Source: an uncultured bacterium
GTDB taxonomy: Bacteria; Actinomycetota; Coriobacteriia; Coriobacteriales; Eggerthellaceae
Direction: 5' to 3'
NCBI GenBank assembly: GCA_905214325.1
Contig: CAJMLT010000003.1
Location: forward strand, 382-64,381
Length of the DNA stretch: 64,000 nucleotides
Shown here in pieces: positions 1 to 8,400 of this stretch (its first letter is position 1; every line of letters begins with the position of its first letter). The notes beneath the pieces were generated by a model. That model worked only from the letters and a program-made list of their open reading frames with translations. It ran no database searches and was not told where the DNA came from. The position numbers and the translations under genes were made by a program.

Positions 1-890
1 TCATCATCTCGGATGACGCCGATAGGGTTCTCGATGAATGCGATCCCCACATCGCCATTCTCACTCTCTTCAGCTTCATGGACGACATGGAAGAACATCT
101 GCTGAAGTGCGTGGAGCGCGGCATCAACGTCGTGACCACCTGCGAGGAGGCCATCTATCCTTGGACCACCTCCGCGCAGATCACCAACCGCATCGATGCG
201 ATAGCCAAGGAAACGGGATGCACGGTCACCGGTGCCGGCATGCAGGACATCTACTGGATCAACATGATCGGCTGCATCGCCGGAGGCGTTCACACCATCG
301 ATCGCATCGAAGGAGCCACCAGCTATAACGTGGAAGATTACGGCCTCGCCCTTGCCGAAGCGCACGGATGCGGGCTTTCACCCGAAGAATTCGAGGCGAA
401 AATAGCCCATCCGGAAACACTCGAGCCTTCCTATGTATGGAACTCGAACGAATCGTTGTGCAACCTGTTCGGGTGGTCCATCAAAACCCAGTCCCAAAAA
501 TGTGTTCCCTATATCGTCGATCACGATGTTTGGTCGGAAACGCTGGGGAAAACCATCCCCGCGGGCAACTGCATCGGAATGAGCGCGGTCGTCACCACCG
601 AAACCTATCAGGGCCCCGTGATAGAAACTCAGTGCATCGGTAAGGTCTACGGACCCGATGATGGCGATATGTGCGATTGGAAGATCATCGGGGAGCCCAA
701 TGTCTCCTTCGGTGTCATCAAGCCCGCTACCGTCGAACACACCTGTGCAGACATCGTCAACCGTATTCCCAGCGTTCTCATGGCTCCGGCGGGATTCGTT
801 ACCGTCGACAAGCTGGAGGCCGCGGAATACCTTTCCTATCCCCTACACCTCTACACGGTGGAAAACAAAGGATGCGGCTGTCATCACTGA
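1..890 (+). CDS. DapB-like NAD(P)-dependent amine dehydrogenase family oxidoreductase (2,4-diaminopentanoate dehydrogenase-like); 5' end lies outside the window
   Basis: Frame 3 is open from position 3 ([25 protein letters not shown]...) into listed ORF 78..890. The sequence [15 protein letters not shown]...[10 protein letters not shown] looks like the DapB-like amine dehydrogenase family from memory. One of only three plus-strand genes. Confidence 0.55.
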
Positions 891-3856: not shown

Positions 3857-3919
3857 CCCCTCCACCACCAAAAGCGATGGAGGGGATCGGTTGAGCTTTG
3901 CGCGGGGGACAAGCCCCCG
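3857..3919 (-). terminator. two GC-rich hairpins just downstream of the surface-protein gene (U-tract-less terminator candidates)
   Basis: Stem CCCCTCCA/TGGAGGGG (3857..3885, 13-nt loop) and stem GCGGGGG/CCCCCGC (3901..3919, loop ACAAG). The gene's stop is at 3931. Confidence 0.4.
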
Positions 3920-3930
3920 CAGATGCGAAA

Positions 3931-6783
3931 TCAGAACGAGAAGCAGGGGATAACGGCTAGAGCACGGTAGGCAATCCGATAGTAGGTCAAACCTTCGCCC
4001 TTACGCACGTTCATGAAGGTCGTGGTGCCACCCGGCTCAGTCGAACGCTCCCACCATTCGCCCGCAGAGAAAATTCCCGAGGGCCCACCACCGGCACGGG
4101 TTCTGCCTAAAGCAGTATCATCACTCGCACTTTTACCGATCCAGTAGGCGTACTGGGAGCCCTCAGATTGAGTCTTGTACTCTAGAGTCGTCTGTCCCGT
4201 CAACTCACTATAGGACATGATCCAGAGCTTGTCGGAGGTTGTGGTGGTGGAGGTGGAAGCGCCACCGATAGCACTTACCTTGGTCACCGATTTCAACTGA
4301 GAGGTGAAGTTGGTGTCGAAGAGGTTGTAGATGGTACCACTGTTCATGCTGGTGCGCAGGGACATCTGGGCCCAACCACCGGAATTGGAGTCGCTTGTGT
4401 TCATCTGGTAAGCCATAGGTAGTGAGTGAACGGCTTGGAAGGTGAGACCGGAGCCATCAGAGTCATGTGGTCCTACTTGTACGATACGGGCTTCGAGATA
4501 GGTTCCGTCAGTAAGCATGGTATAGAGATGGTAGGTGTCGTTGGTCATGTAGGTTCTGTAGGTGGAGTAGTAGGTTGAGCTGGTTCCCTTGGAAGCGATG
4601 TCGGTGGCGGCTGCTTTGATCTGGGAGTTGGTTTGGACGATACCTTGCGTGGGATTGCTTGCTCCCGCAGGGGCTAACCAGAAGCCTTTCACCTCTTCCC
4701 ATTGTGCGGTGTAGGTAGCGTCATCAGCAGGAACGGTGGTGCCGGGAGTGATGGTGGTGCCCGATGTATCTTTCCAACCGGTGAATACCCAGTCGTCACT
4801 ACGGGTGGGCTCTCCCACACCAAGGGCTTTGTCTCCCGGGGTTACCTGTTCGGTCTTAGTGACGGAGCCATCACTGAATGTTCCTGCTCCTGCATCCCAG
4901 GTGATGGTGTAGGCTTCTTTCCATTGGGCGGTATAGACGGCATTACCGGTAGGGTTGGAGCCTATGGGGTTTTCAGCTCCGGTGCCTTCGGTGAGTTTCC
5001 AACCATCGAAGCCCCATCCTGATTTCTTAGGGTTACCGGGGTTGGAGATGGTGTCGGTCATTCCAAGTTTTTGGGACTTGGTAGTAGACCCATCGGTAAA
5101 GACACCACCATCGGTGTTGAAGGTGATGGTGTAGGTATAGGTACCATCGGTTGAGGTTTCCTTGGCTATGTCGATGCCACCGTAGAGGGCGGTTAACGTT
5201 ACATCGGCATCGGGAATGGTAAAGGGTTCTCCCGCCTTGATGAAAGCAACATGGTCTGTTTTGTCTTCATTGGTCCATATTGCCTTCCAACAAGAGAAAG
5301 TATTGCCCTCGTTAACAAGAGTAGAGCCATCGAACGAAGTGATGGTAGTGCCTGCTTTGTAAGTCTTAGCAGAAGGTAAGGTAGCACCTGTGCCTCCTGC
5401 TGCATCATAGGTGAGGGTGTGTTCTGTTCCGTAGTCCACCTGTAGGGTAAAGGAGATGGGCTTAGAGCTGATGGTGTCAGAGGTACCTTGTGCGTTAGCT
5501 TGTTCCGAGTAGAGAGATACTTCGGCTTTGCTGCCCGCCAGTTTGTTGTTCACCAAGTTGGTGACATCGAGCGTGACCGAATCACTACCTGCCTCAGCTA
5601 CTTCACCATAGAGAGTAGACTCGTTTGCTGTGTCCACAAGTGCCGAGAGATAATTTGCATTGGTAGAGGTAACGGGGATGGTGATCTTCGTTGCTCCCCA
5701 AGGGACTTTGACGGTAGAACCACTAACGGTGACAGCACCTTTATCGGTAACGGCATTAGCGAGTGCTGCTGAGATAGTGGTATCGGTGTCTTTAACCACG
5801 GCCTTGTAGGTAGAACCATTACAGGCAGTGGATGTGGGATTGCCGTCGGTGAGAGTGTTCACCGTGGTCAAGCTGGTGCCACTGGTAGACTCTCTTAGGA
5901 ATGCGATCTTAGACGTATCGATATCCATAGAGGGACGTACACCGTAAGAGCCTGCTGTGAGGGTAGAGCCGATGATGGGAGTATCTTTCGCATAAAACTT
6001 AGACAAGCCATAGACGCTTCGTGTTTCTATGTAGCCTTGTACCGTGATGGTAGAAGATGCTCGAGCAAAGCCTATCCATGACGAGGAAGAGGCAGCGAAG
6101 TTACTCGGATCTACCAGTTGGTGTTGCCAGAACTGAAAGCAATACATGCATACCGTACCGGCAGGGATGACATCTCCCGGCTTTGCTTGAACGATACGGT
6201 TGTTCTTAACGTAGGCAAAGATTCTATTACCACCATCGAGGTACATGTTTCTGATGGTGGTTGAGGCATAGGGGCGTCCTCCTGCATCGACTCCTGAGCT
6301 TTTAAGGTTGAAGTTGTTGTAGAAGGTATCTCCATTGTTAATGAACTGAGCAGAGGTTCTATACTCATCGAGGCAAACGGTGGTAGCACGATCCAAGTCC
6401 CAGCTACCTCCGGCACTTGCCGTGTAGTTATTCAAGTTGTAGTTCTGTGACCATGCGTAGGGTCCTTTTGCTACAAGAGTGTCATCATATTGGGAGCCGT
6501 TGAGTTCTCCCGATACTCTTAGATCATTGGATGAGGTGGTGTTGTTGGTGTTGGCATAGGCTTGCCAAGACAGCGAATTGGATGATCCTGAATCGCTTAA
6601 CCAGTAGGCTTTGTCACTGGAGGGAAGTACGCTTCTCCATGAGATGAGATCGGATACGGAAGGGATACTCACGTTGGAGAGTATTCCTTTTACTGCATCA
6701 CTTCCGTATTGGTTGGTGGTGAAGGAGTTTCTCTCCGAAGTGATACCACTCGCATTGACCACACTGCTGGTGGTGTCGGCCAT
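3931..6783 (-). CDS. large secreted surface/adhesin-like protein (main ORF). It carries Listeria-Bacteroides type repeats and a C-terminal WWxRS-motif domain. Its true 5' end is probably ATG 7054, across a G10 tract.
   Basis: 950-aa ORF that is Ser/Thr/Gly/Asn-rich. It has three approx 75-aa repeats with T-Y-T-x-T-F/W-D/N..GG...GW...YTAQW. The C-terminus shows LWIMSYSEL...EWWERS. No LPXTG motif is seen. GC is clearly lower than in the neighbours. Confidence 0.85.
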   Translation of the reverse strand: MADTTSSVVNASGITSERNSFTTNQYGSDAVKGILSNVSIPSVSDLISWRSVLPSSDKAYWLSDSGSSNSLSWQAYANTNNTTSSNDLRVSGELNGSQYDDTLVAKGPYAWSQNYNLNNYTASAGGSWDLDRATTVCLDEYRTSAQFINNGDTFYNNFNLKSSGVDAGGRPYASTTIRNMYLDGGNRIFAYVKNNRIVQAKPGDVIPAGTVCMYCFQFWQHQLVDPSNFAASSSSWIGFARASSTITVQGYIETRSVYGLSKFYAKDTPIIGSTLTAGSYGVRPSMDIDTSKIAFLRESTSGTSLTTVNTLTDGNPTSTACNGSTYKAVVKDTDTTISAALANAVTDKGAVTVSGSTVKVPWGATKITIPVTSTNANYLSALVDTANESTLYGEVAEAGSDSVTLDVTNLVNNKLAGSKAEVSLYSEQANAQGTSDTISSKPISFTLQVDYGTEHTLTYDAAGGTGATLPSAKTYKAGTTITSFDGSTLVNEGNTFSCWKAIWTNEDKTDHVAFIKAGEPFTIPDADVTLTALYGGIDIAKETSTDGTYTYTITFNTDGGVFTDGSTTKSQKLGMTDTISNPGNPKKSGWGFDGWKLTEGTGAENPIGSNPTGNAVYTAQWKEAYTITWDAGAGTFSDGSVTKTEQVTPGDKALGVGEPTRSDDWVFTGWKDTSGTTITPGTTVPADDATYTAQWEEVKGFWLAPAGASNPTQGIVQTNSQIKAAATDIASKGTSSTYYSTYRTYMTNDTYHLYTMLTDGTYLEARIVQVGPHDSDGSGLTFQAVHSLPMAYQMNTSDSNSGGWAQMSLRTSMNSGTIYNLFDTNFTSQLKSVTKVSAIGGASTSTTTTSDKLWIMSYSELTGQTTLEYKTQSEGSQYAYWIGKSASDDTALGRTRAGGGPSGIFSAGEWWERSTEPGGTTTFMNVRKGEGLTYYRIAYRALAVIPCFSF
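4696..5421 (-). repeat. three tandem Listeria-Bacteroides (Flg_new-type) repeat modules inside the surface-protein gene
   Basis: Module 1: HTLTYDAAGGTGATLPS...SCWKAIW...VTLTALYG. Module 2: YTYTITFNTDGGVFTDGS...GWGFDGWKL...AVYTAQWKE. Module 3: AYTITWDAGAGTFSDGS...WVFTGWKD...ATYTAQWEE. Confidence 0.65.
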
Positions 6784-6967
6784 GAGTGTGCCACTGTCGT
6801 TTACGGCTGTGGCTGTTTTGTTGTTGAGGGAGAGTTTTGCACCCTGATAGATTGATACATCGTTGAAAGAAGGTGCATCGGCGGCATAGGCTGCTTGGGT
6901 GGAGGGAGATGATACGAGGGGAATAAGGGTTACTACCAGTATGAGTGCCAGTACTATACGGAAGGCT

Positions 6968-7054
6968 TTAGAAAGATGCCCCCCCCCCGAAGATGGTATT
7001 CAGCAGGGGTGAGTCTGCCCTACCATCCATCACACTGGTGCGGTAATCGTTCAT
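6968..7054 (-). other. out-of-frame 5' fragment of the surface-protein gene (start codon plus N-region), ending 3 codons after the G10 tract
   Basis: ATG 7054 is preceded by GAAGGAAAAGG ending 4 nt upstream. It reads MNDYRTSVMDGRADSPLLNTIFGGGASF and stops at TAA 6970..6968. With one G fewer it would read on into HLSKAFRIVLALILVVTLIPLVSSPSTQAAYAADAP and the main ORF. Confidence 0.65.
6979..6988 (-). repeat. homopolymer tract C10 on the plus strand, G10 on the coding strand
   Basis: Counted directly: positions 6979..6988 are all C. Cross-checked by the plus-strand ORF 6976.. reading ATG CCC CCC CCC CGA. Confidence 0.95.
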
Positions 7055-7281
7055 GGTGCCTTTTCCTTCGCTCTCGGTTCCAACGAACTCGCACGCCTCC
7101 AAGTAAGACCTGCGAATCCTCGATCAGCAAGACACCCTACACCACTCTGTGCATCAAAAGCGCATCAGGGATTGGAGAACGATCGGTAATCATGAATGTC
7201 CTGTTTCACGGGTATCCCTATCAAAGGATCCGCCCCGGCACCATAAGGGAAAACAAAGGAATTCAGTGGAGCCGGCAACCG

Positions 7282-8400
7282 TTAGAGCGTCTGCGCGAAC
7301 CGCACTGAGGAGATAACCCCTCCCCCACAGAGCAAGTCGCCCTGATAGAAAACGGCATATTGTCCCGGTGCCGTCAGAGACTGGTTATTCAAGAAGGTAA
7401 CCCTCACCCGCTTTTGCCCCAACGGAGTAACGGTACAGGGAACCGCCTTGGAGCGATAACGGATTTTAACGCTGCATTCAAAGGGTTTTTCACAAGAGTC
7501 GAAGGCCATCCAATTCAACTGATCCACCTCGACGGAATCAATGAGGGATTCCTCTTCGAACCCCACCACCAACGTATTGTCGTCCGTGCGCTTTTCCACG
7601 ACGAAACAGGGCCGACCGAGAGCGACCCCCAAACCCTTGCGCTGACCTAAGGTGTAGTGGTGAAGGCCCTTGTGCTCCCCAACCACCTTGCCGGAGTGCA
7701 GAACAATGGGACCGGGATCGTCGGGGATACCCTGGGCGAGCAGGAAATCACGATAATCGCCGGGAACGAAGCAGAGATCCTGACTTTCGGGGCGGGTCGC
7801 AACGGGAATACCCAAGGAAGCGGCGTGCGAACGCACCTCCTGTTTGGTGTAGCCTCCCAACGGCAGCACAAGACGGGAGAGCTGATCCTGATCGAGCAGG
7901 GAAAGCATGTAGCTCTGATCTTTGTTGTGATCGAGTGCCACCTTGAGCGTAAAACGACCTTGATCGACCAGTTCGACCACCCGAGCGTAATGACCTGTGG
8001 CAACTTTTTCGCATCCCAGATCGTCGGCCGCCTTGAGAAGGACGGGTATTTTGCAGTTGCGGTTACAGAACACGCAGGGACTCGGCGTCATACCTTGTGC
8101 GCATAAACGACAGAAGGGGTTGATTACCTGCGCTTCGAAAAGAGCACGGGCATCGTAGACGAAATGGTCGATCCCCAGATGGCGACAGACCATTTCGGCG
8201 TTTTTCACGGCATCCGCACTTGCTTCGTCATCGACGAAACGGCAGGTCACACCAATGACGCGATACCCTTGGGCAATAAGAAGAGCGGCGGAGGTCGCAC
8301 TATCGACCCCGCCGCTCAAACCTAATACTATGCTCGATTGCTTATTCGGCAACGATTTCTTCTTGCGCCTCTTCTTCGGGCTTGGGCTCAGGCTCTTCAA
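7282..8400 (-). CDS. mnmA: tRNA 2-thiouridine(34) synthase MnmA
   Basis: PP-loop LGLSGGVDS, conserved Cys region PSPCVFCN, MnmA-like length. The listed start 8400 overlaps rpsA by 59 nt. An in-frame TTG at 8352 is a more likely start. Confidence 0.88.
   Translation of the reverse strand: MKSLSPSPKKRRKKKSLPNKQSSIVLGLSGGVDSATSAALLIAQGYRVIGVTCRFVDDEASADAVKNAEMVCRHLGIDHFVYDARALFEAQVINPFCRLCAQGMTPSPCVFCNRNCKIPVLLKAADDLGCEKVATGHYARVVELVDQGRFTLKVALDHNKDQSYMLSLLDQDQLSRLVLPLGGYTKQEVRSHAASLGIPVATRPESQDLCFVPGDYRDFLLAQGIPDDPGPIVLHSGKVVGEHKGLHHYTLGQRKGLGVALGRPCFVVEKRTDDNTLVVGFEEESLIDSVEVDQLNWMAFDSCEKPFECSVKIRYRSKAVPCTVTPLGQKRVRVTFLNNQSLTAPGQYAVFYQGDLLCGGGVISSVRFAQTL

Follow-up and report, generated by a model that had tools for sequence, protein, structure and literature searches.

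A candidate poly-G contingency switch between the start codon and the signal peptide of an accessory secreted protein in a gut Eggerthellaceae genome

Our analysis of a 64,000-nucleotide stretch of DNA from an uncultured bacterium of the Eggerthellaceae (assembly GCA_905214325.1, contig CAJMLT010000003.1; hereafter the window, in whose numbering positions are given unless another locus is named) points to a slipped-strand simple-sequence contingency switch in the gene for an accessory secreted protein of this gut bacterium, to which we assign a probability of roughly 0.6. The element is a run of ten G (G10) on the minus strand, which separates the start codon of the gene from its signal peptide. 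A sequence-only reading of the window had proposed the tract as a candidate switch that is OFF at G10 and ON at G9 or G12, and this proposal is now supported by the starts of homologous proteins, by G10 in three assemblies, by a ratio of nonsynonymous to synonymous divergence (omega) of 0.25 between alleles and by repeats in the same part of related genes. From these data we infer that switching occurs, that it is heritable at the DNA level and that the protein is exposed at the surface. In the proposed mechanism translation would start at ATG 7054. At G10 the ribosome would end at TAA 6970..6968 after 28 codons and would leave the body of the open reading frame (ORF) untranslated; as the gene body has no start codon, ribosome-binding site or signal peptide of its own, no exported product would be made, perhaps with transcriptional polarity as in Bifidobacterium breve. 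The loss of one G or the gain of two by strand slippage during replication would fuse the 25-codon leader to the signal peptide, and the fused precursor of 1040 amino acids (aa) would represent the ON state. The repeat would then lie within a long N-terminal n-region that is removed by signal peptidase, and since the encoded glycines would be absent from the mature protein, repeat length would be free to vary.

On the minus strand the region reads cgaaggaaaaggcaccATGaacgattaccgc...accatcttcGGGGGGGGGGcatctttcTAAagcc, with the tract in the stretch ...atcttcGGGGGGGGGGcatctttctaaagcc. All elements that the sequence-only reading had described here were recovered (Table 1). The ten C on the plus strand are G10 on the coding strand, and a purine-rich run ends 4 nucleotides (nt) before ATG 7054. 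From this ATG, 25 codons are read before the tract and translation through it meets the early TAA. The frame of the large ORF is open from TGA 7002..7000 and reads IPSSGGGHLSKAFRIVLALILVVTLIPLVSSPSTQAAYAADAPSF across the tract; its first ATG, GTG or TTG is ATG 6783, which opens an ORF of 950 aa (3931..6783). Simulation of tract lengths from G7 to G13 reproduced the predicted fusion of about 1040 aa: G9 and G12 gave continuous proteins of 1040 and 1041 aa, while G7, G8, G10, G11 and G13 all stopped within 27-33 codons, and a full protein was obtained only from lengths divisible by three. The tract accordingly toggles the frame between a full-length and a truncated product, and with ten G it exceeds the length of about 8 at which G/C homopolymers of contingency loci are hypermutable.

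Table 1. Positions of the features of the surface-protein gene in the window
Feature	Position	Strand	Details
G10 homopolymer, proposed slippage switch	6979..6988	(-)	C10 on (+); OFF as sequenced, ON predicted at G9/G12
Start codon of the surface-protein gene	7052..7054	(-)	ATG context ACACCATGAAC.ATTACCGCACC and leader MN[DN]YRT kept in all alleles and in homologue P0003
Shine-Dalgarno-like purine run GAAGGAAAAGG	7059..7069	(-)	ends 4 nt ahead of ATG 7054
Upstream frame in the G10 state, 28 codons and TAA 6970..6968	6968..7054	(-)	translation MNDYRTSVMDGRADSPLLNTIFGGGASF, then stop
Signal-peptide region 3' of the tract	6883..6978	(-)	translation: HLSKAFR, h-region IVLALILVVTLIPLV (6913..6957), SSPSTQAAYA
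Mature protein	3931..6882	(-)	beta-rich N-terminal region of about 590 aa, two Flg_new repeats, C-terminal DUF6273 (Pfam)
Conserved upstream block, promoter-like	7121..7170	(-)	GATACGCTTTTGAT...GGTGTAGGGTGT; TAGGGT at 7139..7134; based on conservation
GC-rich hairpin, possible terminator and 3' cassette edge	3902..3920	(-)	GCGGGGGC-TTGT-CCCCCGC; just past the stop codon

The start codon is identified by homologues. With the N-terminal region as query, an exhaustive HMMER search recovered a family of 71 proteins, of which 24 scored E < 1e-30. The closest intact homologue, P0003 (48% identity, 1993 aa), begins with MNNYRTVVSGGKATAALLNASRGKG...LLGKALRVVFSAVLVV (MNNYRTVVSGGKATAALLNASRGKG...AGLLGKALRVVFSAVLVVSLLPVLPYTGLSTQAYAVDAPAF), and its leader (MNNYRT...), hydrophobic core and AxA site are colinear with those of the window gene, in one frame and with no homopolymer. 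The context of ATG 7054 is kept at the DNA level in the window, in both other alleles that include the 5' end and at the P0003 locus, and many further family members carry leaders of 30-60 residues ahead of the hydrophobic core. Because the leader of P0003 is in frame, because the ATG context and an upstream block are conserved and because long leaders recur in the family, the fused reading is, by this comparison, the ancestral structure of the gene and ATG 7054 its real start. The sequence-only reading had suggested comparing the starts of orthologues, with starts at the equivalent of ATG 6783 and no signal peptide as the outcome that would contradict it; the homologues instead begin at the equivalent of ATG 7054, and their leaders run in frame into the signal peptide.

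A G/C run of at least 10 somewhere in 64 kb at 55% GC is in itself not extremely rare. The expected number is 0.24 for independent and identically distributed (iid) bases and about 0.10 when the observed decay of run lengths is extrapolated, and 41 of 300 first-order Markov simulations held such a run. G10 is, however, the sole G/C run of at least 7 in the window, where runs of 7-9 are absent against about 11 expected (iid). Moreover, GGG accounts for only 2 of the 91 glycine codons in the gene body (2%), compared with 15% in neighbouring housekeeping genes, while the tract consists of three GGG codons plus one G exactly between start codon and signal peptide. Given the absence of runs of 7-9 and the avoidance of GGG in the gene body, a single long run at this junction is out of character for both the gene and the window, and the tract is kept contrary to the gene's own codon habit. 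A search for other tandem or simple repeats of note in the window found none.

Public assemblies contain three further alleles, two of them with the 5' end: L001 (ENA ERZ919792, human gut, contig k127_52080; G10 at 183..192) and L021 (ENA ERZ1309671, contig NODE_36875, a SPAdes-style name that includes a coverage of 1.72; G10 at 615..624). The fourth allele (P0004/L029) is a 1-kb mid-gene fragment that ends short of the 5' end. Both L001 and L021 carry the leader, exactly G10 and then the same TAA as the window, and the GAAGGA core of the Shine-Dalgarno-like run is kept in both. Their leaders differ from that of the window at 4 (L001) and 6 (L021) of 66 positions, with 4-7 differences among the three alleles, and three of the four substitutions between window and L001 fall at third codon positions of the upstream frame. 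Around the tract, window and L001 match at 100% over about 110 nt, whereas the flanks differ. Over 948 aligned codons the same two alleles show a synonymous divergence (dS) of 0.75, a nonsynonymous divergence (dN) of 0.19 and an omega of 0.25, with both ORFs intact; between alleles, dS is 0.09-0.24 in the 5' 180 nt compared with 0.75 in the body. Since the ORF stays open across a dS of 0.75 at this omega, the gene is, to judge from its substitution pattern, under purifying selection and not dead, in line with an intact homologue that has a colinear leader. Furthermore, a chance error in assembly would not turn up three times, so that the out-of-frame G10 is, on the evidence of the assemblies, real and the majority state in three samples.

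These data bear on three explanations in which the tract would be no switch. We consider it extremely improbable that translation starts at the internal ATG 6783, with a cytoplasmic product of 950 aa and the upstream part serving as a 5' untranslated region. Gene callers do annotate from the internal start (P0001, P0002, P0047), but no purine-rich ribosome-binding site lies ahead of ATG 6783, the 90 codons ahead of it encode conserved protein sequence, signal peptide included, that is also part of the homologues, and the domains are of extracellular types (Flg_new, beta-rich adhesin-like folds). It is very improbable that the tract length is an error of sequencing or assembly and that the real sequence is G9 in an intact gene. 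Long G runs are indeed hard to sequence, Illumina artefacts arise at G tracts and database lengths can differ from measured ones (Penno et al., PMC9187656), and the L021 contig has a very low coverage. However, three assemblies made with different assemblers, two of which come from other samples, agree on G10 in alleles that differ elsewhere; a systematic +1 bias would have had to act identically each time, and in relatives the architecture recurs with repeats of other types, again out of frame. Somewhat less improbable, although we still think it unlikely, is an inactivated remnant, in which a +1 frameshift in a prior G9 stretch encoding Gly-Gly-Gly would have been spread by recombination of the 5' segment. 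All observed copies are OFF, the much closer 5' 180 nt are consistent with a recently shared 5' segment, two relatives (L024 and L022) have an in-frame TGA near the 5' end and L021 has a further frame disruption. A remnant would nevertheless be hard to reconcile with about 1000 codons that are open in both full-length alleles at an omega of 0.25, with a leader frame in which window and L001 differ mostly by synonymous changes, and with a GGG codon that is avoided in the gene body yet kept threefold in the tract; the extra lesion of L021, moreover, comes from the contig with the low coverage in its name.

A doubtful alternative, though one that deserves more attention than these three, is programmed recoding on a fixed G10, either by slippage of RNA polymerase to give G9 mRNAs or by a +1 shift of tRNA-Gly on GGG GGG GGG G. 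Recoding would give a constitutive low-level or physiologically tuned amount of full protein with no heritable change, and it may coexist with slippage at the DNA level. Programmed transcriptional slippage is known from Thermus dnaX, Shigella mxiE and the transposases of IS elements, where two frames are linked by a homopolymer whose length does not change and genomes keep the out-of-frame arrangement, a pattern that the three alleles here may share; the known bacterial cases are mostly A/T runs, often with a nearby hairpin, whereas the tract in the window has no such structure and the repeat types of relatives vary. All three alleles have G10 although their leaders vary at 4-7 of 66 positions, a constancy that is characteristic of a conserved site for recoding and not of a repeat that drifts freely. 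Moreover, a +1 shift, with the mRNA shorter by one base, would suffice and would allow perfect re-pairing inside the run, and the identity of about 110 nt around the tract points the same way. On the other hand, three alleles are a small sample, and the more distant homologue P0003 has no tract. An adjacent stimulatory element was not found: the minimum free energy of 6890..7060 is no better than that of shuffled sequences (z = +0.85), and the zero-frame codon after the run is GCA and not a stop, which leaves no obvious pause signal. The differing repeat types of relatives, in ON and OFF registers, fit mutational switching better, and the analogous G10 of B. breve behaves as a DNA-level switch (PMC9187656). 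Three out of three would be expected anyway at an equilibrium like the 93% G10 of B. breve, since any assembly from a population with about 90% G10 would show G10. The slippage-proof counterpart of the G10 tract is GGAGGTGGC+1.

Several observations weigh against a contingency switch. The tract is G10 and thus OFF in three of three alleles whose leaders have diverged by 6-10%, with no length variation seen at the locus. At classic contingency loci, tract length usually varies from strain to strain. A protein-pattern scan of the GTDB representative genomes found no relative of the gene, and neither a protein scan nor a DNA pattern allowing tracts of 6-16 had a match in the JGI metagenomes. A word-indexed protein search matched nothing beyond the ORF of the window itself and one allele. 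A further search of the databases with the ON N-terminus gave no ON-state protein, but it was insensitive enough to miss even the window's own protein and says nothing for or against ON alleles. Finally, the protein ends in ...ALAVIPCFSF with no LPXTG motif and no known anchor, so that its surface location is argued from the signal peptide and the domains.

The slippage switch that we favour draws its strongest new support from the more distant family members whose 5' DNA was readable, as their leaders contain simple repeats upstream of the hydrophobic core. L023 (P0005, 38% identity, locus GC 40%) carries a G8 that lies 8 codons past an ATG with a ribosome-binding site and is OFF; G7 or G10 would give 1035 or 1036 aa, and the restored leader matches those of the intact relatives P0008, P0009 and P0026 (...HVDGLAHIHEGAKAFQ). 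An (AG)11 repeat past ATG 1508, which has the ribosome-binding site AAGGAG, leaves L026 (P0007, 36% identity, locus GC 38%) OFF as well, with products of 1131 or 1133 aa predicted at (AG)9 or (AG)12. At the homologous 'ERERES' position, L027 (P0013, 33% identity, locus GC 43%) has (AG)9 and L028 (P0066, 33% identity, locus GC 40%) has (GA)8, and both are ON. L024 (P0010, 34% identity, locus GC 40%) shows an interrupted (AG)4..(AG)4 and an in-frame TGA before the hydrophobic core. Repeat number differs among the homologous leaders of relatives, with (AG)8, 9 and 11. Judging from these genes, different repeat types in both registers fill the same slot, namely the segment that signal peptidase would cleave from the precursor. 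An A10 run in L025 (322..331, coding L-K-K-K-E, P0020) was not counted as a leader repeat, as the start codon (TTG?) is uncertain; it lies just upstream of the signal peptide of P0020, where the gene adjoins the tail of an LPXTG-type (LAKTG) protein that precedes it. Two low-GC family members, L024 (2779..3000) and L022 (100..160), have an in-frame TGA near the 5' end, which in L024 falls exactly between leader and hydrophobic core, at a position that is Arg in a homologue. As the genes nearby look normal under code 11, both are probably nonsense-inactivated copies; their stop codons hint at a family that is often switched off at the 5' end.

Further G tracts were observed near family members. 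The loci L018 and L019, which carry the identical P0003 gene, are 99.93% identical over 12 kb, with 7 mismatches, and the only indel between them is G11 versus G12 in a tract that lies 7 nt ahead of the start codon (ATG) of an SBP_bac_8 lipoprotein gene (L018 1949..1959; L019 1948..1959). This tract also ends a third contig from the strain (L020 1..11). The difference reflects either true hypervariability or sequencing ambiguity, and in both cases tract length appears as a labile character, which counts in favour of a switch; the tract may be a second phase-variable or expression-tuning one. Gene callers place the start of the SBP_bac_8 gene differently, at 2027 or 1910. In L027, a G11 (5001..5011) precedes the start of the next gene (ATG 5057) by about 46 nt; this gene encodes a surface protein of 1703 aa with a DUF11/CLIPPER-like N-terminus and lies directly downstream of the member with the (AG)9 leader. 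The motif CAT[CT]TTT follows three unrelated G tracts (window 6968..6988, L018 1949..1966, L027 5001..5018) in the contexts GGGcatctttc, GGGcattttc and GGGcattttt, which read AAA(A/G)ATG and then a C run on the other strand; a rough estimate from these three loci makes such sharing very unlikely by chance. Taken together, these patterns allow a broader proposal that we put forward only tentatively and regard as unlikely in its present form: either the long cleaved n-region is a family-wide, convergently evolved landing pad for interchangeable repeats (G10, G8, (AG)n, possibly A10; locus GC 38-56%) in monoderm gut commensals, or the conserved G10 and the recurring G(n)CAT[CT]TTT of the window, L018 and L027 are a signal for slippage or recoding at the RNA level.

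The signal peptide that the sequence-only reading had recognized after the tract has the expected layout in translation. Cleavage is predicted after AYA by the (-3,-1) rule, and the order of h-region and AxA site is kept in homologues (QNSANA/A; TQAYA/VD, with the slash at the cleavage site). The protein scores above the gathering thresholds of the Pfam families Flg_new (Listeria-Bacteroides repeat; 7.5e-15, 55.3 bits, cut-off 27) and DUF6273 (1.7e-07, 31.7 bits, cut-off 23.5), while its first 590 or so mature residues matched no Pfam family. An AF2 model from 16 homologues (mean predicted local distance difference test score, pLDDT, of 89) is almost all beta. In a Foldseek comparison with the PDB it gave weak matches to tandem immunoglobulin/fibronectin type III-like (Ig/FN3-like) domains of adhesins, pilins and S-layer proteins, at a template modelling (TM) score of at most 0.2 over the whole model, and no enzyme fold was among the matches. 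The h-region and AxA site, the Flg_new repeats, the beta-rich adhesin-like fold and the hypervariability between alleles are predicted features of a protein of the surface or of host interaction, and the product is probably secreted, surface-associated and adhesin-like. A hypervariable segment at 5900..6350 (codons 211-360 of the fused protein) has a proportion of nonsynonymous differences (pN) of 0.40 and a nucleotide identity of 46-62% between alleles; the segments on either side of it are well conserved, and the alleles are nearly identical over the 5' 180 nt. In sequence terms this mosaic is typical of surface proteins under diversifying selection or recombination.

By analogy, the closest known system is bbr_1889 of B. 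breve. The Bifidobacterium precedent that the sequence-only reading had named is real: B. breve UCC2003 has experimentally demonstrated intragenic G-tract switches in its pilus clusters, bbr_1889a/b (G10) and bbr_0113a/b (G11) (Penno et al. 2022, PMC9187656). In bbr_1889 the G10 reference is out of frame and OFF and the loss of one G makes it productive; cultures contain 93.4% G10 and 6.5% G9, passage through the mouse gut enriches the productive length, and transcriptional polarity is described for the OFF state (PMC9187656). The window gene resembles bbr_1889 in its gut Actinomycetota host, its OFF reference, the productive loss of one G and a large surface protein, as well as in a poly-G near the 5' end that parts an ORF with start codon and ribosome-binding site from a long ORF with no initiation signals. 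It differs in that it encodes a stand-alone Flg_new/DUF6273 protein instead of a sortase-dependent pilin, with no LPXTG motif, no adjacent sortase and coaE/uvrB and mnmA/rpsA as neighbours, so that a pilus cluster of the Bifidobacterium type was rejected as a class for this locus. Furthermore, the tract precedes the signal peptide and is part of the n-region leader, whereas in B. breve the signal peptide is in the upstream ORF; the host belongs to the Eggerthellaceae (Coriobacteriia), and switching is proposed here from the sequence.

Repeats in export leaders are familiar from the CTCTT repeats of Neisseria opa genes and the CT dinucleotide repeats of Helicobacter pylori oipA, sabA and hopZ, which lie in signal-peptide coding regions. 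As proposed for the window gene, the repeat is part of a cleaved export leader, its residues are absent from the mature protein and its number sets the frame, and the (AG)n leaders of L026, L027 and L028 are a direct dinucleotide counterpart. These are, however, Gram-negative pathogens with repeats within the hydrophobic core or the early signal sequence, unlike the unusually long n-region (about 30 aa) ahead of the hydrophobic core in monoderm gut commensals. The poly-G/C contingency loci of Campylobacter jejuni and Neisseria meningitidis likewise have intragenic G/C homopolymers of at least 8 in surface-structure genes whose frame sets ON or OFF; the genomes concerned contain dozens of tracts whose length polymorphism is well documented both between strains and within them, compared with one tract in 64 kb and no polymorphism seen at the locus here (PMC8355987, PMC5084427). 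The 7C tract of Mycobacterium tuberculosis glpK is a case of homopolymer phase variation in another member of the Actinomycetota, with a reversible frameshift in a short G/C run; this run is shorter and lies in the middle of a gene for a metabolic enzyme, not at the junction of leader and signal peptide of a secreted protein (PMC10334774).

The mechanism class is therefore known, while the host family and the protein family are new. We found no report of simple-repeat phase variation in Eggerthellaceae in the literature searched, and phase variation in Eggerthella lenta has been described as megabase DNA inversions (PMC13131767). A poly-G switch on a strain-variable, apparently adhesin-like secreted protein would, if true, be a second mechanism for this family. 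In mucosal pathogens, simple-repeat contingency genes are textbook knowledge, but only few cases are documented in gut commensals, such as the pili of B. breve. Although a specialist would not be surprised by the mechanism, its value lies in the family-wide pattern, in the consequence for annotation and in the ready testability in existing reads. A useful generalization is that the long export leader of this family repeatedly hosts G(n) or (AG)n repeats. Gene callers systematically mis-annotate such genes as signal-less proteins of 950 or 888 aa, and secretome and adhesin surveys of gut metagenomes would therefore miss them. Moreover, counts of tract length in existing metagenomic reads could reveal selection for ON or OFF states in vivo.

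The surroundings of the gene are, by their NCBIfam content (UvrB, dephospho-CoA kinase, MnmA, ribosomal protein S1, SerA, IlvB/D, ThrS, ValS and UvrA), ordinary chromosome, and the gene itself sits between mnmA and coaE. The best relatives of CoaE (64-72% identity) come from metagenome-assembled genomes of Eggerthellaceae, e.g. 'Eggerthella sp. CAG:368', and the large gene is missing from the syntenic rpsA-(mnmA)-coaE-uvrB site in these CoaE-identified relatives. Its GC content at third codon positions (GC3) is 0.56 compared with 0.64-0.70 in the neighbours, and in the third allele (L021) a different gene lies upstream of it. Because of this absence, the lower GC3 and the different upstream gene, the gene is, by comparison of loci, an accessory insertion of about 3.3 kb that extends from about 7190 to the hairpin at 3902..3920. 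L001 likewise has a hairpin of this kind past its stop codon; that of the window has no T-run, and a terminator scan called no canonical terminator here. A megablast of the 5' region against plasmids had no match.

The upstream block is near-invariant in the window, in L001, in L021 and at the paralogous P0003 locus L018, which has a different genomic context, and is likely a shared promoter or regulatory element, even though a strict scan for the sigma-70 consensus called no promoter upstream of ATG 7054. The form GAT(G/A)CGCTTTTGAT..GGTGTAGGGTGT is common to the window (7121..7170) and to the locus of the 48%-identical paralogue (L018 5880..5935). At the other end of the gene, a C-terminal motif [VI]-x-P-C-F-[SA]-[LMF] at the end of DUF6273 is found in the window (3931..3960, VIPCFSF) and in P0005, P0010, P0011 and P0014, and might be a sorting or modification signal. 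In the neighbourhood, the listed mnmA ORF (TTG 8400) shares 59 nt (8342..8400) with the 3' end of rpsA, and the match to the MnmA hidden Markov model begins only at residue 24, which places the true mnmA start probably further downstream.

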